Of a stretch of 64,000 bases of DNA, positions 4,817 through 13,184 are shown in pieces. Location: the NCBI GenBank assembly GCA_963719425.1, contig OY970382.1:650880-714879 (forward strand). The letters are read 5' to 3'. Numbering within the stretch: position 1 is the stretch's first letter; each line of letters opens with the position of its first letter. The notes below the pieces were generated by a model. That model saw nothing but the letters and a program-made list of their open reading frames with translations, was not told the DNA's origin and ran no database searches. The translations under genes and the position numbers were made by a program. Origin of the DNA: an uncultured bacterium (lineage in GTDB: Bacteria; Patescibacteriota; Minisyncoccia; UBA6257; 2-01-FULL-56-20).

Positions 4817-5529
4817 GCGGGAAGGTTTTTATCGAGATTTTTTTGATTTGGATTCTTCTTGTCTTCAAGAATGAGGCCATCCTTGATAAAAATGATCCGC
4901 TCCGCACAATTCGCCGTATCAGGATCATGGGTGATCAGAATCATCGTGACCTTGTGTTCCTTATTGAGGCGCTGAAAGGTGCCAAGAACGATCTCTCCCG
5001 TTTTTGAGTCAAGATTGCCCGTCGGCTCATCCGCCATAATGACCGAAGGATTATTAACAAGCGATCGAGCGATGGCCACGCGCTGGATCTGCCCTCCTGA
5101 AAGTTGGTTCGATTTATGTGTCCACCGATTTTCGGGAAGTCCTGCCGACTGAAGAGCGGCGGCGGCACGCGGTTCAAGTTCGGCCTCGGGCGCACCGGAA
5201 TATACCAGCGGCAAGGTTACATTGCGCATTACCGTAGTGCGCGGCAGCAAATTGAACGCCTGAAATACGAATCCGATCTTACTCGAACGTATGTCCGCAA
5301 GTTCATCATCGGAAAGCTTTGAAACGTCCTTGCCGTCAAGAAAATATTGTCCCGACGTTGGAGTATCGAGGCATCCCAAGATGTGCATAAGCGTGGACTT
5401 CCCCGATCCGGAGGGGCCGATAATGGCAACGAACTCCCCGTCTTTAATGGAAAACGAGACCCCTTTCAATGCTTGGGTTTCTTCTTCGCCGCTTCCATAG
5501 ACTTTTGTGAGATTTTTGCATTCAATCAT
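4813..5529 (-). CDS. ABC transporter ATP-binding protein (MacB/LolD-like)
   Basis: Walker [10 protein letters not shown], signature [15 protein letters not shown], Walker [12 protein letters not shown]. Confidence 0.9.
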
Positions 5530-5540
5530 GGGATATATAT

Positions 5541-7220
5541 TTAGGCACCGGGGCCGCCCAATAGCCCTCCCGATGATGTCTTGGTAGCGCCCGTAACGGT
5601 ATGCGTTACGATGAGTTCGCCCTCGGTGAGGCCGGAAGTGATAACGGTATTTAAGTTGTCGGAATCTCCCGTTTGCACCGTAACGGAATGCGGGGCGGTA
5701 GTTAATGAAATCGTCGCGCCGTCCTTCGCTCCGGCCACCCCGTCAAGCACCTGCACCGTTGAATTTGACCCCACGCTTAACACTGCTGAGTTAGGGACAA
5801 GGAGCACTCCAGTATCCTGTCCGATAGTTATTGTCGCCGAAACACTCATCCCCGGCTTCACTCCTTGGCCTGAGGCATCGAAAACAATTTTTGCATTATA
5901 ACTCACCACCCCTTGGGTAACCGTACCGATGGTATCGATCTGAGAGACTGTGCCCGTTGCCGTAACGCCGGGCAACGCATTGAAGGTAATGGTTGCTGTA
6001 TCGCCGAGCTTCACCTGCGCCGCATCGACTTCGTTCAACGAGATTTTTGCAATCTGCTCTTTGGTTATGACGGTGGCAATAACCGTATTGGTATTCACGA
6101 CATCGCCGACCGAAACGTTCACGGCGGCAACAACACCGCCAAACGGAGCTTTGATAAAGCTTTGATCGTAGGTGTTCTGAGCGGCTTGCAGTGCCGCCGT
6201 ATCGTTATCGAGCTGCGCCTTCGCCGTTGCGATGTCTTCGGGAAGAACCGGGGCAGTCGTTTGGTTATATGATGCCTGATTTTGTGCAAGCGACGAGGAG
6301 GCAGTTTGAACACTTTGCCCCGCCGCAAGCACGCTTGAAATGTCAGATGAAATGGTCGCCCGCGCCGAATCGACGGTGGTTATATAACTCGTCCCCGCAG
6401 AGGCGGGCACGATATAATTGGTGAGAACGCTCAGCATATCGTTAAGAAACTGGCTGGTCGAAGCGAGGTTGGTGTTGGTTGTCGCGAGCGCCGCAGCAAG
6501 ATCATTGACGTTGATATTCCCCGTGGAGGAGGCGGCCTTTGCAATTTGATCTTGCCATGTCGAAAACATATATTGAGCGCTCAGCCTCTCGTCGTTTATG
6601 TTGTTTTGAAGCTGGGTATTGGTCACGGTACCGCCCGGAACGGAAAATTGCGGATTAGCCGTCGTATTATTTGCATTGCCAAAAAATCCGTTCGTGTTGG
6701 TGAATACCACGGAAAATGTGTCGTTATAGGCACTCTGCAAACGGTTTATGAGTGTTTGTTCGGCATTTTGTAACGAGAGTTGAGCAGAGGCCACCTGCGC
6801 CTGACTCACTGCCACGCTTTGGCTGGTCGCCCCCGCCACCACTTTGTCATAATTTGCCTGTGCGCTTTCAACATTCGCTTTTGCCTGTGTGAGCTGTGTA
6901 AGAGCACTCGCATTACCAATGACCGCAATTTGTTCACCCGCAGTTACGGTGTTGCCTTGTTTTACATCCACCTCAGTAATCGTTGACGCGGACTGAGTCG
7001 TACCCTGCGGTTGGAGATCGACTTGGCTTTCGGCCTCCACTTGGCCAGTGCCATTCACGGTAATTGCAAGATTCCCCTTGGTCACTGTCCCGACCACATA
7101 TTGGGTCGGAGACCCCTTTCCTGCACTCACAATAAAGAATCCGCCAATTACAAGAACGACTACCACAGCAACAGATAGTATCTTGTGCGCTCCCACCCAC
7201 GCAAGAATCTTTTGTTTCAT
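5541..7220 (-). CDS. Efflux periplasmic adaptor subunit (HlyD/MacA family) with long coiled coil
   Basis: 559 aa with N-terminal TM anchor, long Ala/Gln-rich coiled-coil segments and a β-barrel-like C-terminal region. First gene of the three-gene export operon. Confidence 0.8.
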
Positions 7221-7233
7221 ATTGTTAGTTCTA

Positions 7234-7476
7234 TTACGGTCGCTCTTTTAAAATTCTGGCGATTTTCCCCAAATGTTCCGTGAAGGCTTTTGCTTTTACG
7301 ATGACAATGCCGTCATCAAAAGGAGTGCCTATGATAAGGAATCGTTCGCCCGATTTTATATGGAGTTTTTTCCGCGCTTCCGCCGGGATGACAACTTGCC
7401 CCTTCTCGTTGATCGTCGATGTCCCATAGATTTCCGACATGGGAGGTATAAAATTACCCTTTTTATTACTTTTCAT
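7234..7476 (-). CDS. AbrB/MazE/SpoVT-family DNA-binding protein (possible antitoxin/regulator)
   Basis: 80 aa. GQVVIPAEARKKLHIKSGERFLI matches the swapped-hairpin AbrB/MazE motif. Immediately downstream of the serine recombinase on the same strand. Confidence 0.6.
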   Translation of the reverse strand: MKSNKKGNFIPPMSEIYGTSTINEKGQVVIPAEARKKLHIKSGERFLIIGTPFDDGIVIVKAKAFTEHLGKIARILKERP

Positions 7477-7540: not shown

Positions 7541-8896
7541 TTATAAAATGTCGCTCTTCTTTTCAATCACAAGCTGCTTATTCTTCAGCACCAGCCAGCT
7601 CTTGAGGTTCGTTAGCAACTCCCTTTTCTCCGTAATGCTACCCTCTTTGAGGAGGTATTTAGCATAGGTCTTGAAATCGATGTCGTTGGTTTCTTTCCTG
7701 ATTTTCTCCTCGATTTTGTCGGTACCAAACATCGCCCGCTTAAAGTGTTTATAGCGTTCAATCTCTTCTTCAAATTTCTTTTTGACGCCGAGCTCGTTCA
7801 TGTCGATCCGGTCCATGAGTTTCACGAGCTGTGCAATCAAATCCTCCTCGCGGATCGCACCGCCCTTGCAGTGCAGATCCCTCGATCGTGTGCAGGCGTA
7901 ATAGACGTAGCGATGCACGTTCCCATTTTTCTGCTTCTTGAATTTCTCATCGGCCGTAATGCCCGATCCACACTCGGCGCATTTGATGAGCTTTGTAAAA
8001 GCGAACTCTTTTGATTCCCGTTGGATATGATCTCGCTTTAGTTGTTCCTGTACCTTGTCGAATAAATCTCGCGAGATGAGCGGCTCATGCTTCCCATTGT
8101 ACCAGTTGCCACTTTTCTGCGGATACTCGAAGACGCCGTAATAAAAGGTATTTTGGAGAAGAACATAAATATTTCCGAGCGATAAATGGTGGTTGCTCTT
8201 AGTCCGGAAATTCAGCTCAAATTTCAACCAGTGGAAAAGCTTCCTCCCCGACCAGCGGTCGAAGGCCACCTTTTCGAACATCTTCTTGATAACGGGCGCG
8301 CGCTCGGGATCAATAATAACTTGGCATTTCCGCTCGGCGAGCCGTTGCGTGAGATAGCCCGTGGGTGGGGTTGTCGGCCATAAACCCATCTCGCATCGCG
8401 CCCGCTGCCCTCTCTTTATATTCACGCCTCGGTTGTCGTTCTCAAGCTTCGCCTGCGAGCACAGGATCATGAGGAGGAACTTCTCGTTTGGCGAGTTACT
8501 GAATCGCTGACCGTAAGTGCGGATCTCCATAAGGAGCTTCTGGTCCATGAGGTCCACGAGCGATCCAAGGTCGCCCGCGTTCCTTGAGAGCCGATCAGGT
8601 GCCCACGTGAGGATGCCGTTGAACTTGCCCATGCGAAGATCGTTGATCATCTCGTTGAAGATGGGTCGTTGTCCGGTCGCTTTCGCCGAATGGCTCTCGC
8701 GCTTCATCTCCACGATTTCAAGATTCTCGCGCTCGGCAATCTGGAGCATCTCCTTTATCTGCGAATCAATGGAAAGGATCTGACGCTCCTCCGATTCCGT
8801 GCTTTTCCTCGCGTAAAGGCAGTATTTGACCTTTATGGGAGCCTCCACTGCCGTCTGGGTCCCGACTCCCCGGGGATCCGTTGTTTTTGCTGTCAT
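7541..8896 (-). CDS. Large serine recombinase (resolvase domain + recombinase domain + zinc ribbon)
   Basis: 451 aa. N-terminal YARKSTESEERQ…SIDSQ catalytic Ser region, central recombinase domain, C-terminal CAECGSG…C zinc-ribbon and coiled coil. Confidence 0.9.
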   Translation of the reverse strand: MTAKTTDPRGVGTQTAVEAPIKVKYCLYARKSTESEERQILSIDSQIKEMLQIAERENLEIVEMKRESHSAKATGQRPIFNEMINDLRMGKFNGILTWAPDRLSRNAGDLGSLVDLMDQKLLMEIRTYGQRFSNSPNEKFLLMILCSQAKLENDNRGVNIKRGQRARCEMGLWPTTPPTGYLTQRLAERKCQVIIDPERAPVIKKMFEKVAFDRWSGRKLFHWLKFELNFRTKSNHHLSLGNIYVLLQNTFYYGVFEYPQKSGNWYNGKHEPLISRDLFDKVQEQLKRDHIQRESKEFAFTKLIKCAECGSGITADEKFKKQKNGNVHRYVYYACTRSRDLHCKGGAIREEDLIAQLVKLMDRIDMNELGVKKKFEEEIERYKHFKRAMFGTDKIEEKIRKETNDIDFKTYAKYLLKEGSITEKRELLTNLKSWLVLKNKQLVIEKKSDIL

Positions 8897-8948
8897 ACCA
8901 CAAGGGATGACGCAACGGTGGATGGAGTCCAGACCCCTCGGAAGGCCC

Positions 8949-8977
8949 TTGAAAAACCCCTAAAAATGTGGTATTCT
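8949..8977 (+). promoter_or_regulatory. Putative sigma70-like promoter for the 9047..10460 gene pair
   Basis: TTGAAA (8949-8954), 17-nt spacer, TATTCT (8972-8977), about 70 nt upstream of ATG 9047. Confidence 0.4.
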
Positions 8978-9046
8978 CATGGGAAATAAGCCCTCGAAAT
9001 TGAGAGAAAGGTCGATTGTGTAAAATCAGCTAACAACAATATTTTC

Positions 9047-9631
9047 ATGACCAAAGAAACATTCTCAAAAGAACTCAAAGAGATCCTCGAGCTTGTAAAA
9101 ATGTGCCCACAAAATCTCCAAGAAAAATGCTTCGAGATTCTTCTTAATGATGCGCTGACATCAATGAAGGGAGGGCGGCGCGCGGACACGGGAGCGAAGG
9201 GAGAAATACCTGACCGCGCCGACGTCGGGGCATCGGGCGTACCCCCCGAGATCAAAAAACGAATCAAGGTCTTCGCCGAACATCACCAGCTTTCCGATGT
9301 TGAGATTTATAAAGTGTTCGGCGTCGACGAAGCGGGAAATGTAAGCATCGAGGCTGCGGATTTGAAGTCTAAGAAAGTTGCGCAACAACAGCGGCGGCTA
9401 GCGTTGCTAATCGGTGTCAAGCATCAATTCGCAGAGAGCAGCTTTGATGTACCAAAGGATGAGTTGCGCGAAGCGTGCGTAACCTATGGAGCATACGACG
9501 CCGCAAACTTTGTGCAGAATCTCAAAAATATGAAAGAGATATTCGCCGGCTTCAAGCCAACCGCGACCAACAAATTATCTCCCTTGGGGAAGACACAAGC
9601 AGCGGCTCTCGTTAAGGAATTAGCTTTGTAA
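9047..9631 (+). CDS. Hypothetical protein (first gene of two-gene module)
   Basis: 194-aa ORF, no recognisable motifs. Stop lies 8 nt before the start of the next ORF, suggesting translational coupling. Confidence 0.55.
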   Translation: MTKETFSKELKEILELVKMCPQNLQEKCFEILLNDALTSMKGGRRADTGAKGEIPDRADVGASGVPPEIKKRIKVFAEHHQLSDVEIYKVFGVDEAGNVSIEAADLKSKKVAQQQRRLALLIGVKHQFAESSFDVPKDELREACVTYGAYDAANFVQNLKNMKEIFAGFKPTATNKLSPLGKTQAAALVKELAL

Positions 9632-9641
9632 ATTATGCCGC

Positions 9642-10460
9642 ATGGTAGAACAACTGGAACGCTTCCTGTCGTCCCTTGCGGAACTTCAAGAAGCCATCAA
9701 GAAAAATAAATCCGACTTTATTTCTCGCTCCGCTCTGCGAGGTAGCGTTGCAGATTGCGGGAAGTTTTGGCTTGGTAAGCTCTCGACCCAAATCCGTGGT
9801 GAGGGGTTGATTGACGATCAAATTCTTAACGCGATAGATGAAAAAATCGAAAAGTTGTTAGAGTTGACTTCGAATAACAACCGAAAAAACTCTTACCTCG
9901 GTTTGCTCAACGCGCTGCCGAAGGAAATCCAAAAGGGAGTCCTCGTCCCTATTATCAAGAAAACGAAAACGGCGCAAAATCCACTCGCCGCCTCGATCCT
10001 GTCGAAGATTTATTCCAGCCTCTCTTCTGACGAGGAGAGAAAATATTTTGAGGAGGCTGCTCGGGCGGCGGCCAGTGAGTGCTATAAGGCTGCAACAGTA
10101 ATGGTATGGTGCGCAGCAATTGATAGGCTTCGAAAGGTGGTTGAGAAGTTAGGTTTGAAAAATTTTAATAAAACCTCGAAACAGCTGAAGGCGCGGAAGA
10201 CCGGGTACTATAAACGTTTTTCTAAAGAATTTGATATATCACAGACCAACGAATTACCGGAGGTTTTTGATAAAGATTTGATCACGGTTCTTTCGGCAAT
10301 GGTAAATCTGGATTTGAACGAACTAGCAGCGATTATCCACCTCTTTGACGTACGCAACCACTGTGCCCATCCGTCTAGCTACGTCATGGACGAATTGGCC
10401 TATATCAACTACCTCAATGAGGTGTTGAAACTGGTGCTGTCCAATCCAAAATTTCTATAA
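9642..10460 (+). CDS. Hypothetical protein with C-terminal Rx4H HEPN-like motif (Abi/HEPN-like RNase candidate)
   Basis: 272 aa, mostly α-helical. The C-terminal …LFDVRNHCAHPSSY… fits the HEPN Rx4-6H motif, reminiscent of Abi2/AbiD-type HEPN domains (inference from the motif only). Confidence 0.55.
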   Translation: MVEQLERFLSSLAELQEAIKKNKSDFISRSALRGSVADCGKFWLGKLSTQIRGEGLIDDQILNAIDEKIEKLLELTSNNNRKNSYLGLLNALPKEIQKGVLVPIIKKTKTAQNPLAASILSKIYSSLSSDEERKYFEEAARAAASECYKAATVMVWCAAIDRLRKVVEKLGLKNFNKTSKQLKARKTGYYKRFSKEFDISQTNELPEVFDKDLITVLSAMVNLDLNELAAIIHLFDVRNHCAHPSSYVMDELAYINYLNEVLKLVLSNPKFL

Positions 10461-10479
10461 ATTTTCTGCTCTCGGGCAG

Positions 10480-10920
10480 GATCAAATGAGACATCGCCCC
10501 GAGACACGCAAAAAGTGTCTCATTTGTCTCATTTGATCAAAAAAAGTCTTATTTTACGGGCTTCGGTTTTTCGAAATGAGACACTGGTTTGTCCCACTGG
10601 AACACCCAGTTTTGTGTCTCATTTTGTCCCATTTCGGACACGTCCGGAATGCCGTTTTGGTGTCCGATTTGTCCGATTTGGCACACCGGGATGGCACACG
10701 AAAAAGTGCCTATGCTGTGTGCCATTTGTGCCATTTTCTCCCAAAATGTTACATGCCCCGGCAGTGTAACATTTGTAACATTTTGGGCGTTGCGCTTGGG
10801 ATGTTGCATTCCGGATCCCTTGAAAACACACATATTTTCGGTCTTGGCTGGCCACCCCACCGCAGAGGTGTCATTTCCCAAATGTTACACATCGTGTTGC
10901 ATTTGGTGCATGTTGCATTT
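10480..10920. repeat. Degenerate dyad/direct-repeat array of GT-NNN-CATTTG words with stepwise-varying cores
   Basis: Tandem pairs gtctcatttg×2, gtcccatttcg, gtccgatttg×2, gtgccatttg×2, gtaacatttg×2, gttgcatttg/gtgcatgttgcattt, each preceded by a matching inverted half-site (gagacac…gtgtctc, ggacacgtcc, ggcacac…gtgcc, tgttaca…tgtaaca). Region is open in 5 of 6 frames; the translated products look non-proteinaceous. Confidence 0.8.
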
Positions 10921-11100
10921 ACCCTAAATCCAAGAGCGACCTCCCGGCTTCAAAAACCGCTTTTCCAAGAAAGCCCTGAAAGGCTCATCAAAAAGAGGTT
11001 CCCGACCGAGGATCACCGCCCGTTAGTGCGTAAGTTTGAGGGGCCGCTTTGCCTAGTTTAACGCATTTCCACCCTGAGCTATAATTAGGGCATCAATAAT

Positions 11101-11274
11101 ATGAAGTTCAATATTTCTTCAAAATATTTTATCCCAATAGGAATCGCGCTCTATATTATTTTTCTTATCATAGGAGGCGTTATCGGCAGCGCAATTGGAA
11201 CAGTCGGATTTATCTTGTTTCTGTTGGGCCTCTTTGACATACTGCGTTCATGGTTTAAGAAGGGCAAGTCATAA
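11101..11274 (+). CDS. Small hypothetical 2-TM peptide (57 aa; below ORF-track cutoff)
   Basis: ATG at 11101 preceded by TATAAT (11079-11084). Product MKFNISSKYFIPIGIALYIIFLIIGGVIGSAIGTVGFILFLLGLFDILRSWFKKGKS has two hydrophobic helices. Confidence 0.35.
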   Translation: MKFNISSKYFIPIGIALYIIFLIIGGVIGSAIGTVGFILFLLGLFDILRSWFKKGKS

Positions 11275-11409
11275 TATGAATAAAGGAGGTGATTTGAATT
11301 GCGATAAATGCGGAAGAACAATAAAATCAAAACCGAACTAATCCTTTATTGGCTATTTCAGTATTTGAAGTTCGTGTAAATAATCGAAATCTTACTTATA
11401 TCGTAGACA

Positions 11410-11868
11410 ATGATAGATAAAAATCCAAAAGGACTTTTTAGGGAGGATTTGAAAAGCGCCAAAGTTATAAGCGTGGGGAATAAATTTGGTATTGAGGCGG
11501 AATACATTGGTGGCGAAAAAGAATTACTCCACGATTCGTTTAATTCTTCCGATGAAGCTCAAAAGGAGATTGACGAGACTCTAAAATGGGTCGGTAGAAT
11601 TTCCCTATCAGATTCAATTAAGGCGACGGACGAGGTATTTGTTAAGATTGTTGACAACATTAAATGGGAGGCGAATGACCTCGCGCTCATTGGTATCTTA
11701 TTCACATTGATGGTTGGGCTGATTCCCCTGGTCAACCTTCTAGTTAAAAATTTATTCGCAGCCTGTATAATTGCTGTTATTAGCACAACAATCCTAATGG
11801 TGATAATTGCGAAGATAAAGATTGTTAAACGCCCTATAATCATATTCTTTAGATGGCTTTTGAAATAG
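11410..11868 (+). CDS. Hypothetical protein with soluble N-domain and two C-terminal TM helices
   Basis: 152 aa. C-terminal LALIGILFTLMVGLIPLVNLLV and IIAVISTTILMVIIAKI hydrophobic segments. AT-rich. Confidence 0.5.
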   Translation: MIDKNPKGLFREDLKSAKVISVGNKFGIEAEYIGGEKELLHDSFNSSDEAQKEIDETLKWVGRISLSDSIKATDEVFVKIVDNIKWEANDLALIGILFTLMVGLIPLVNLLVKNLFAACIIAVISTTILMVIIAKIKIVKRPIIIFFRWLLK

Positions 11869-11920
11869 AATCATAAAGTCGAGTATGTTCTCGTTATTCT
11901 ACTGACGGATCCGGGTTTTG

Positions 11921-12010
11921 GGGAAATAGACCCCGACCGACCCGCCTCAAATGACCGATTTCCAAGAACGTTGCGATGGATTGCCAGGATTTGGTTCTAG
12001 ACCTCTTCAC
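11921..12010. repeat. Direct repeat A (~95 nt), upstream flank of the nucleotidyltransferase gene
   Basis: About 80% identical to 12881..12975. Conserved core …CCGAC(C/T)CGCCTCAAA(T/C)G(A/G)CCGATTT(C/T)CAAGAA(C/T)GTTG…GGATTTGGTTC…CACCGC. Confidence 0.7.
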
Positions 12011-12038
12011 ACCGCCAGTTGGGAAAAACACAAATATT

Positions 12039-12830
12039 ATGAGTGAAAATTTAGATCATATACTAGAACACAAAAGATTCGCTCCAACCCCGGAATCGCT
12101 TAGCGCCATGAAAAATATCCGAGACATGCTTGAGGGCATACAAAAAAATATTCCCGGAATCCGCGGGATAGGTTTTATGGGGTCGCGAACAAAAGGCCAG
12201 GAAAAAGCAGATTCAGATTTAGATATTGTTGTTTTTTACGACTGGAATATAGTATTTAACACCAAGAAATATATAAACAAAGAAGTTATTCGAGATTCAT
12301 TTCCAGTAGATATCCCCCTCGATGTGGAGCATTATGGTGCTTTACATTTGGTAGAGATAGGTAAAGGGTCATTAGATTCTGAAATTTCTGACCTTGTTGC
12401 CACAGCCAATGAGATTGCTGAAGGAGAAAATATTCCAGTGGAACAAATTCCCACATTACCTTTCCGGTCACCTTTGAGCAATTTATTTATGCTTGCGGTT
12501 GGTGACCAGGTTTATAAAGCGAGGAGATATGTGCTTGAACAATTACAGTCCAAACCTTACGGAGAAAAATACCTTCAACTTTTAATGAAGCAACTCTCTA
12601 AAGACGAACGCGAAGGAACCAGGAAACGAATAAGCCCGCAATATCCGAATTACCCTAAAACTTTTGAAGACGCAGAAAAGTTTTTTATTACCGAACCCTA
12701 CGATCTTGAAGAATTAAACGCGCCACTTATATCGCCGGCCAAAGAAGAGCCAAGGCGTTTAGGAGAAACTATTACAGCAGCGATTAACAAATTCTATTTG
12801 AACCTTAAATCGAAGAAGGGACGTGAGTAA
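12039..12830 (+). CDS. Nucleotidyltransferase-domain protein (pol-β/minimal-NTase fold with C-terminal helical domain)
   Basis: GIGFMGSRTKGQEKADSDLDIVVFYD (GS…DxD) plus a third acidic residue at DIPLDVEH about 30 aa later. Start placed at ATG 12039 because the upstream part of ORF 11976 overlaps repeat A. Gene is about 27-30% GC. Confidence 0.7.
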   Translation: MSENLDHILEHKRFAPTPESLSAMKNIRDMLEGIQKNIPGIRGIGFMGSRTKGQEKADSDLDIVVFYDWNIVFNTKKYINKEVIRDSFPVDIPLDVEHYGALHLVEIGKGSLDSEISDLVATANEIAEGENIPVEQIPTLPFRSPLSNLFMLAVGDQVYKARRYVLEQLQSKPYGEKYLQLLMKQLSKDEREGTRKRISPQYPNYPKTFEDAEKFFITEPYDLEELNAPLISPAKEEPRRLGETITAAINKFYLNLKSKKGRE

Positions 12831-12880: not shown

Positions 12881-12975
12881 AAAATTGAACCCTACCGACT
12901 CGCCTCAAACGGCCGATTTTCAAGAATGTTGTAACGGCTTGCTGGGATTTGGTTCCCGACCGAGGAACACCGCAG
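12881..12975. repeat. Direct repeat B (~95 nt), downstream flank of the nucleotidyltransferase gene
   Basis: Aligns with 11921..12010. Ends GGTTCCCGACCGAGGAACACCGC, sharing GGTTCCCGACCGAGGA(T/A)CACCGC with 10999..11021. Confidence 0.7.
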
Positions 12976-13184
12976 ATTTGGTTGAAGATTATTTTCCACC
13001 GCGAGCGGCCACGCTTCGCGTGGCATGAAATCTAGCTTTCCCTCGCCGAGCCGGGAGTTCGGGGCTGCCTAGCATCCATAGGTTCTCGCCCTCAGGTTTT
13101 AGCATCGCAAAAAATTTAGGGATAAATCGGAGAGGATCGCCGATCCGGAAAAAATGACGAAAAAAAGGTTATAATCTGATATAT

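Follow-up and report, generated by a model that had tools for sequence, protein, structure and literature searches.

What is the function of a run of short palindromes in which the repeated word changes from one repeat to the next? Such a run, ~450 bases long, occupies positions 10480-10925 of the DNA analysed here, a 64-kb stretch of contig OY970382.1 (assembly GCA_963719425.1) from an uncultured member of the Patescibacteria. The whole stretch of 64,000 nucleotides is called the window, or W, and comparison loci and contigs carry L numbers. Patescibacteria have tiny genomes, and their exchange of defence and accessory genes is poorly understood; we know of no genetic system for them. We find that this array is non-coding, and comparative evidence supports well that it is a conserved, modular part of a mobile gene island. 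Together with an element that follows it (R), the array marks the cargo-distal end of islands linked to a large serine recombinase (LSR), the cargo being exchanged between the parts of this module. Our tentative interpretation, with a probability of roughly 35%, is that the array acts in cis, as a DNA junction or recombination-site module that delimits such an island on its distal side.

An array of palindromic units, each with its own word

The gene upstream of the array, which encodes a 272-aa protein, ends with its stop codon at 10460, and words of the form TGT-NNN-ATT(T) fill the stretch from there to ~10925. They are arranged in six contiguous units, referred to here by their word cores (NNN in TGT-NNN-ATT). 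Each unit has a word of its own, 7–10 nt long, set as a 9-bp tandem doublet (GT-GTNNNATTT-GTNNNATTT-T) and usually accompanied by an inverted copy upstream; in the window's family, one or two inverted copies lie 15–38 bp upstream of the doublet. Tandem Repeats Finder returned four exact period-9 doublets (CTC, CCG, GCC and AAC) and one imperfect doublet (CTC/CCC). Perfect 14-nt inverted arms join 10480-10493 to 10525-10538 and 10740-10753 to 10774-10787, alongside further inverted partners. The window contains 25 copies of the motif TGTNNNATTT where 9.6 ± 3.3 would be expected, 16 of them within 10484-10920, and the tandem pattern GTNNNATTTGTNNNATTT occurs four times against 0.02 expected, always inside the array. 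An assembly artefact is ruled out because a Logan assembly of an independent public run (L121) is 100% identical over 8861-10982.

A preliminary reading made from the letters alone (hereafter the sequence-only reading) had described duplicated 10-mers throughout 10470-11060, with an inverted half-site before each copy. The repeats occupy 10480-10925, and the remainder of that span is a different element, R1. Their true period is 9 bp, the 10-mers sharing one overlapping G; duplication is exact in four units, imperfect in CTC/CCC and absent from the TGC unit, and inverted partners, including the two perfect 14-nt pairs, are usual rather than universal. The 7-bp stem proposed at 10501-10521 is real. 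Two distinctions drawn at the outset also stand: the array has no constant repeat alternating with unique spacers, unlike CRISPR, and its words differ between units, unlike iterons with identical copies. CRISPR arrays are defined by identical direct repeats of 23–50 nt separated by unique spacers of comparable length; here we found only 9-bp doublets and short inverted arms, with no repeat family above 33 nt and copies 68–77% alike.

The array does not encode a protein

Avoidance of stop codons in five of six frames over about 400 bp had been put forward as statistically unusual. Stops are depleted relative to dinucleotide shuffles, with 18 in the six frames of 10480-10925 against 27 ± 3.6 (~1% of shuffles have 18 or fewer). 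The longest stop-free stretches in the six frames are 389, 346, 285, 174, 249 and 333 nt, and five frames open for at least 249 nt arise in 0.15% of shuffles. The claim was nevertheless overstated, as 18 stops correspond only to the 14th percentile of the rest of the window; the depletion probably reflects the repetition of stop-free words.

Three open reading frames lie across the array and none has a Pfam match. Frames crossing the array match only homologous arrays, in several frames and on both strands, and the indels between the arrays of W, L030 and L015 are not multiples of three. A protein-coding region is thus ruled out by the absence of known families and of a conserved frame among array homologues, in agreement with the initial view of a multi-site or hairpin element rather than a gene. 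Searches against known non-coding elements were equally negative: Rfam, run on window positions 8500-12500 with E up to 10, returned only two chance-level eukaryotic matches, no tRNA was found in the array region, BLAST found no similar DNA in phage and plasmid records, and no Y1 transposase was seen in any locus scanned. We found no description of such arrays in the literature searched. From inspection of the sequences, we set aside several further readings that did not seem to suit every unit: mimics of codons or anticodons, PUF-type UGU..AU elements, promoters of the sigma-54 or T7 type, and 9-bp target-site duplications.

Arrays accompany a large serine recombinase and exchangeable cargo

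We scanned one genome per species for two doublets 15–45 nt apart. This gave 16 stretches, 11 of them genuine, and nine of these 11 are labelled Patescibacteria, Peribacteria, Adlerbacteria or Magasanikbacteria; pattern matches in L017, L022, L024, L028, L029 and L031–L034 were simple tandem or coding repeats and were discarded as false positives. Related arrays in homologous islands, which the sequence-only reading had suggested looking for, therefore exist. LSR homologues (37–68% identity) lie within 8 kb of eight of the 11 genuine matches, and six of these (L015, L016, L018, L021, L027 and L030) share one layout, in which LSR gene and doublets are directed away from each other; in L020 and L026 the LSR lies on the other side of the array. 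An array is also present in L116, whose LSR is 90% identical to that of the window. The LSR is the sole protein common to the compared loci where the two co-occur.

The island can be described as an LSR gene reading leftward, its leader, variable cargo, the word-units and R. No cargo intervenes in L030 and L021, where the array starts ~70–130 bp from the LSR start codon, and unrelated cargo lies between LSR and array in W, L015, L016, L018, L027 and L116. The window's cargo genes all read along the plus strand, diverging from the LSR, and are faced by a promoter-like site in the leader. Host DNA follows array and R, with genes for a transketolase (L021), tRNA-Met (L018), a glutaredoxin (L020, L027) and a dihydroorotate (DHO) dehydrogenase (L116). 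The proposal that the array lies inside an island is supported, and the island is a mobile one. The L018 island lies between two tRNA-Met genes (204-276, 5554-5628), and the array–R–glutaredoxin block adjoins a tRNA-Gly(ccc) gene in L020 (1933-2006) and L027 (4607-4680), in opposite orientations relative to LepA.

The left cargo junction (AAGGCAAG) falls directly after AAGG(C/T)AAG in L015, L115, L116, L119 and L090, and in the cargo-less L030 the same AAGG(C/T)AAG runs straight into unit 1. Cargo is wholly different from the window's in L015, L115 and L116. The L115 island (LSR 93% identical) holds a diversity-generating retroelement at 762-2193, with reverse transcriptase and bAvd, and the L116 cargo (5471-6719) consists of two genes without family.

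The leader motif at 8903-8940 is kept upstream of most LSR homologues and looks like a shared leader or operator. Its subtype ending in AAGG(C/T)AAG goes with a window-type array in three of the five loci with enough flank. We considered whether leader motif and R could be direct repeats of one attachment (att) site; a profile of the leader found no copy after the array, and the second copies in L038, L045, L089 and L105 are leaders of another co-oriented gene, so the proposal was abandoned. These further sites lie at L038 4170-4213, L089 844-877, L045 5840-5869 and L105 3415-3444, and the motif GGATGACGCAAC...GGAGTCCAGAGCG in some loci precedes a second co-oriented small gene (111 aa and without family in L045). 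Exact-protein look-ups of the window's LSR and ABC ATPase, made in search of an empty site, gave no matches on record.

Words, register and stems are conserved

At the nucleotide level, the array is at least as conserved as the LSR gene: identity to W is 82% in L030 and 76% in L015 for the array, and 71% and 73%, respectively, for the gene. L030 has one extra unit, L015 has a different unit order, and L116 carries a 205-aa gene within the array, between its CTC and AAC units; units are gained, lost and reordered between elements. The words CTC, CCC/TCC, CCG, AAC, GCC, GCA, CGC and TCG recur in distant elements. Words also change in step, as in unit 6, which reads GTTGC or GGTGC at five places in W and GTTAC at all five in L015. 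The imperfect doublets (CTC/CCC, CCC/TCC, CAC/AAC and AAC/ACC) differ by one base, and the A/T-rich spacer CTTATTTTAYGGGCWTCGRTTTTTC (10539..10571) is also recognisable in L116 and L027.

Single-base differences and stepwise words are what duplication and drift are expected to leave, and other one-word clusters are scattered through these contigs, so the array might be a functionless by-product of slippage and template switching in a recombination-prone spacer. Against this, identical doublets (among them CTC, CCG, AAC and CCC/TCC) are retained in elements whose LSRs are only 37–65% identical and across different phylum-level bins. Conservation of the array is no lower than that of the LSR coding gene, and both its orientation and its place in the order with LSR and R are fixed. 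We regard such an origin as quite improbable.

To describe the anatomy of the doublets, 36 were collected across loci. The 9-bp register is invariant in 36/36, GT stands before 33 and T follows 25. Twenty have an upstream arm that is complementary at 9 or more of 11 positions, compared with 3 in the downstream control and 0 in shuffled sequence; the remaining 16 lack such an arm and come mostly from compact arrays (L016, L018, L019, L021, L025 and L026). Distances from arm to doublet cluster weakly near 17, 26 and 38 bp, many of the sites being orthologous. Because these 16 doublets do without a good inverted arm, a hairpin is not obligatory and, with the invariant register, this points to double-stranded DNA sites.

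The stems also hold compensatory changes, which suggests that pairing is of importance. An RNAalifold consensus of W and L030, retaining only pairs compatible with both sequences, contains 101 pairs with six double changes and ~17 G-U-compatible single changes, and three of the six double changes sit in one short helix beside the stem of unit 2. The opposite strand gives an equal result. The imperfect CCC/TCC doublet of L015 is matched by two different 5' arms, GGGACAC and GGAACA. Mismatches in good stems on the plus strand are G.T in nine cases and A.C in two. Relative to dinucleotide shuffles, the array folds at −174.9 kcal/mol on one strand (z −5.6) and −166.5 kcal/mol on the other (z −6.0); neither fold energies nor alignment folding discriminates between the strands.

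Each of these properties (the very strong fold at z −5.6, the predominance of upstream arms, the double and G-U-compatible changes, the excess of G.T mismatches and the matched arms of L015) would suit a structured non-coding RNA, or else six or seven hairpins forming a 3' untranslated region. Transcription would start at the promoter-like site in the leader, which faces the array, or arrive by read-through from the cargo, and the duplicated 3' arms would provide alternative pairings or processing sites. The minus strand, however, folds and covaries equally, which favours neither strand as the transcribed one, and no Rfam family matches. Compact arrays (L019, L025 and part of L016, L018 and L021) keep the doublets and not the arms, and neither the exact 9-bp register nor the direct identity of words without a pairing partner in unit 6 is needed for a hairpin. 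Read-through is not general, because the cargo genes neighbouring the L116 array face the other way. An RNA function is in our view somewhat unlikely.

Element R and the edge of the island

R follows the arrays of L015, L018/L112, L020, L026, L027 and L116 and is not found in other LSR loci. Its three copies in the window close, in turn, the array, a pair of genes for 57-aa and 152-aa proteins, and a nucleotidyltransferase gene, forming a cassette-like row; the last 31 nt of R3 are tandemly repeated (12946-13005). R has no conserved consensus fold and was rejected as a structured RNA. Each R holds two direct 9–10 nt boxes (GACCGAG type) ~75 nt apart, which change together between loci, for example to GACTAGGAT twice in L020.

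Promoter-like pairs occur in R of L018 (TTGACA-17-TATAAT) and L026 (near-consensus), and just after R1 in W (TTAACG-16-TATAAT). Such pairs would be expected if the array were a transcription insulator, a stack of hairpins with T-rich tails stopping cargo transcription while R provides an outward promoter. Consistent with this, a scan of 8800-11400 for terminator-like sites yielded 11 where 3.4 were expected, and three of the 11 fall within the array; ATTT(T) closes every doublet, and the array lies at the island edge beside host genes. The stems, though, have long loops and are rich in A/T, which sets them apart from strong intrinsic terminators; a single hairpin, or two, would be enough; and the orientation of the cargo relative to the array is not fixed (L116, L018). 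The matching second copy of each word and the conservation of words across distant elements would also go unexplained. These points make an insulator rather unlikely.

The array as a possible replication origin

Two direct words and one inverted short word beside an A/T-rich segment form the layout of many plasmid and CRESS-DNA virus origins. The array, with two direct words, an inverted word and the A/T-rich conserved spacer, matches this layout, and could conceivably serve the excised island as a centromere or as a replication origin of the iteron type, to which a partition or initiator protein would bind. The resemblance to iteron origins of plasmids and of the geminivirus/nanovirus Rep type extends to tandem short words with an inverted copy nearby, an element-specific word that co-varies in all its copies, and an adjacent conserved A/T-rich segment. 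A related array upstream of the LSR in L045 has three perfect DnaA boxes, each before a one-word cluster.

The differences are considerable. The array lacks an initiator gene and a nick-site hairpin and combines six words, and we know of no origin with six different words. Conservation alongside the array does not extend to any Rep, primase, ParA or ParB gene, the LSR alone being common, and neither a Rep or Par gene nor a DnaA box was found with the window's array; even at one mismatch, no DnaA box is present in the arrays of W, L030, L015 and L116. Nor are DnaA boxes general upstream of these LSRs: they characterise only L044 and L045, with single boxes in two other loci. We therefore think an origin or centromere unlikely.

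The L045 (6185-6480) and L044 (7640-7960) arrays, both upstream of LSRs, follow the same logic, with the words GTTAAC and then GTAGAC/GTCTAC every ~10–11 nt. Their DnaA boxes (three perfect in L045, near-perfect in L044) are 128–137 nt apart, each ahead of a one-word cluster, and the clusters are followed by a conserved spacer, ACACAAAA...TAGTATTAGG.

A proposed role as a DNA junction module

The sequence-only reading had named an origin, a partition or centromere-like element, a regulatory array and an ncRNA side by side, and the present data narrow that range in part. Having weighed these alternatives, we return to the DNA junction or recombination-site module, which is favoured because no protein other than the LSR is conserved, the doublets keep a fixed register, many relatives do without the arms, the two strands give like results, R lacks structure and the cargo junctions are precise. 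In the proposed mechanism, the units and R would act in cis as double-stranded DNA sites at the cargo-distal end of the island, providing fixed points between which cargo is inserted, lost or exchanged. A site-specific DNA-binding protein would read the units; of the candidates, only the LSR is conserved from locus to locus. A higher-order complex would assemble on the palindromic triple sites and the A/T-rich spacer, and the distinct words might keep adjacent units from pairing or recombining together. The anatomy and conservation of the array, its linkage to the LSR, its modularity and the turnover of cargo are shown by the sequences; protein binding, involvement of the LSR and recombination at the units are what we infer from them.

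Several observations weigh against this proposal. The cargo-side junction sequences show no clear common recombinase-binding motif; it is therefore possible that cargo is swapped by homologous recombination in the conserved flanks. It is unlikely that one protein reads ~15 different words whose cores are conserved between orthologous units, and this is hard to reconcile with the mechanism. To our knowledge, LSR half-sites do not occur as tandem copies of one motif. The maintenance of stems through double changes (W/L030), together with the G.T to A.C ratio of nine to two, fits single-strand folding.

Linkage to the recombinase is also incomplete. Doublets occur without a nearby LSR in L019, L023 and L025. 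Within a family of more than 7,900 proteins (E below 1e-100), 80 metagenomic loci with 57–69% identical LSRs yielded a two-doublet array only in L112; among the same 80, L086 has one imperfect doublet, and L087, L102, L109, L111 and L114 have single doublets of the variant word GTCACTTTT. Co-evolution of the array with one LSR clade was rejected, as array-bearing LSRs are scattered across the LSR tree.

Comparison with known systems

By analogy, the array is perhaps best described as a repeat-built cis element of mobile DNA, the closest parallels being integron attC arrays, iteron origins and the res and att sites of serine recombinases. As in integrons, variable cargo genes stand in a row that diverges from the recombinase gene and is faced by a leader promoter, cargo turns over between conserved junction elements, and these junctions are imperfect palindromes that vary in sequence but keep their architecture and short constant ends; the additional cassettes of the window are each closed by a repeat (R2, R3). 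The dissimilarities are that the recombinase here is a large serine recombinase and not the tyrosine recombinase IntI, that RYYYAAC/GTTRRRY cores are absent and units end in AAATG..ACAC / GTGT..CATTT, that five or six units stand back to back with no gene between them, that the boxes are direct repeats of one word instead of inverted R and L boxes, and that element R is not palindromic.

These parallels raise the prospect that the island is a serine-recombinase counterpart of the integron, with the words as address codes that restrict site pairing, a reading that we consider improbable. In such a system, cargo would be captured and shuffled by the LSR at one fixed site of the leader, AAGGCAA|ATGAGACA, and recombination of the cassettes would take place at the word-hairpins and R. 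The words might be read as folded single strands, or through an array RNA guiding the LSR.

The sites of serine recombinases offer a second parallel, in that the array lies upstream of the recombinase gene. Unit 1, a 59-bp near-palindrome, has the size and symmetry of an LSR att site, with inner and outer repeats spaced much like the motifs for the recombinase domain and the zinc-ribbon domain in an att half-site. Res sites also combine several dimer sites of different spacing, and direct repeats are used in Sin site II. Known att sites, however, are single 40–50 bp sites without arm arrays, imperfect inverted repeats about a 2-bp crossover where element and host DNA meet, res subsites share one motif whereas the words of the array differ, and in most loci cargo separates the array from the LSR, the array of W being internal to the island. 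REP/BIME elements likewise form mosaic intergenic clusters of short imperfect palindromes of several types; the present array differs in copy number (one site in the window, ~1 per 100 kb in the fetched loci) and has neither a RAYT transposase nearby nor a GTAG-type head.

In this context, array and R provide a sequence handle for delimiting LSR-linked islands, and the array is a concrete substrate for asking whether a large serine recombinase can run a cassette-type system. Should the words prove to be recombination address codes, this would be a novel principle among serine recombinases and one that could interest genome engineers; a mere terminator block or operator set would be a modest addition.

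The HEPN-like cassette is not the partner of the array

The sequence-only reading had set the array in the context of the adjacent HEPN-motif gene and its upstream neighbour, the 194-aa gene. The 194-aa and 272-aa genes form a conserved two-gene cassette in other Patescibacteria (L001–L014), where its neighbours are restriction-modification, AAA_15 and LexA-methylase genes. The 272-aa protein has weak HEPN-type matches (PD-T7-3, E 1e-5; PDB 9wx2, E 2e-4, chain named Dandelion-hepn), and the pair is a candidate defence system in its own right.

The array could be an RNA or DNA partner of this gene, either a type III antitoxin-like RNA or a set of operators for the 194-aa and 272-aa proteins: it begins 20 bp past the 272-aa gene, the protein has the weak HEPN-type matches given above, and another structured region follows its homologue in L005–L008. 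Regular non-coding repeats beside a defence-type gene are likewise reminiscent of CRISPR and ToxI. Homologues of the 272-aa protein gave no support: none of the 14 loci in which the 19 homologues were sampled has this array downstream (L001–L004 and L009–L014 among them); a gene lies 26 nt away in L009 and a convergent gene 137 nt away in L012. Conversely, the array accompanies wholly different cargo in L015, L016, L018, L027 and L116, and no cargo in L030 and L021. The repeats are not identical copies, unlike ToxI-type antitoxins, identical 34–36 nt repeats and cas genes are lacking, and the array is not linked to the HEPN gene in relatives. A link is not supported, and the comparative data already refute for the most part a partnership, which we judge very improbable.

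The structured region of L005 (3700-4300; also in L006–L008) spans ~600 nt after the 272-aa homologue and uses other words (AACGACGA, AATGCCAA) in the style of a hairpin with a duplicated 3' arm followed by T runs.

Feature coordinates and additional observations

Table 1 Units of the array and other parts of the island, in window coordinates
Feature	Position	Strand	Description
LSR, 451 aa	7541..8896	-	Pfam Resolvase + Recombinase + Zn_ribbon_recom
LSR leader	8897..8977	+	Motif 8903-8940 (GGATGACGCAAC..GGAGTCCAGAC); rightward promoter-like site facing cargo
Promoter-like site in LSR leader	8949-8977	+	TTGAAA-17-TATTCT (promoter scan)
Cargo cassette, 194 aa + 272 aa	9047..10460	+	PF27235 AF_1680, HEPN-like; not the array's partner
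Unit 1, word CTC	10480..10538	+	59-bp near-palindrome; doublet 10517-10534; order: outer arm GATCAAATGAGACA, inner arm GAGACAC, GTGTCTC, then TGTCTCATTTGATC
A/T-rich conserved spacer CTTATTTTAYGGGCWTCGRTTTTTC	10539..10571	+	Run of invariant columns in the W/L030/L015 alignment
Unit 2, words CTC/CCC	10572..10636	+	5' arm CGAAATGAGACAC; imperfect doublet GTGTCTCATTTTGTCCCATTTCG
Unit 3, word CCG	10635..10681	+	5' arm CGGACAC; doublet 10662-10679
Unit 4, word GCC	10680..10737	+	Two GGCACAC arms (10680, 10693); GTGCC (10706); doublet 10719-10736
Unit 5, word AAC	10740..10787	+	14-bp perfect arms around first doublet copy; doublet 10766-10783
Unit 6, word TGC	10789..10920	+	GTTGC at 10789, 10803, 10896, 10912 and one GGTGC; AAATGTTACAC arm at 10880
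R1	10916..11022	+	~105-nt conserved element after the array; nhmmer E 8e-11
R2	11923..12019	+	After the 57-aa and 152-aa genes; nhmmer E 4e-15
R3	12881..12977	+	After the nucleotidyltransferase gene; nhmmer E 3e-17

An AbrB/MazE-type gene of 80 aa follows the LSR on the same strand (7234-7476); it lacks conservation among the remaining loci with an array. Other places where one short word is clustered in both direct and inverted copies are L080 2941-3081, L090 11481-11641, L063 7061-7241, L019 2861-3001 and L025 301-420. The L080 cluster contains stepwise word variants (ACGCAGAAC, ACGCGGAAC and ACGCAAAAC), and the L025 cluster repeats GTTGC, the word of the window's unit 6, five times. The short-read contigs L001–L004 end within 27–82 nt past their 272-aa homologues, and L117–L120 end within 10–270 nt upstream of the LSR start; such repeated contig ends at the LSR and 272-aa junctions suggest strain-level variability or repeats there.

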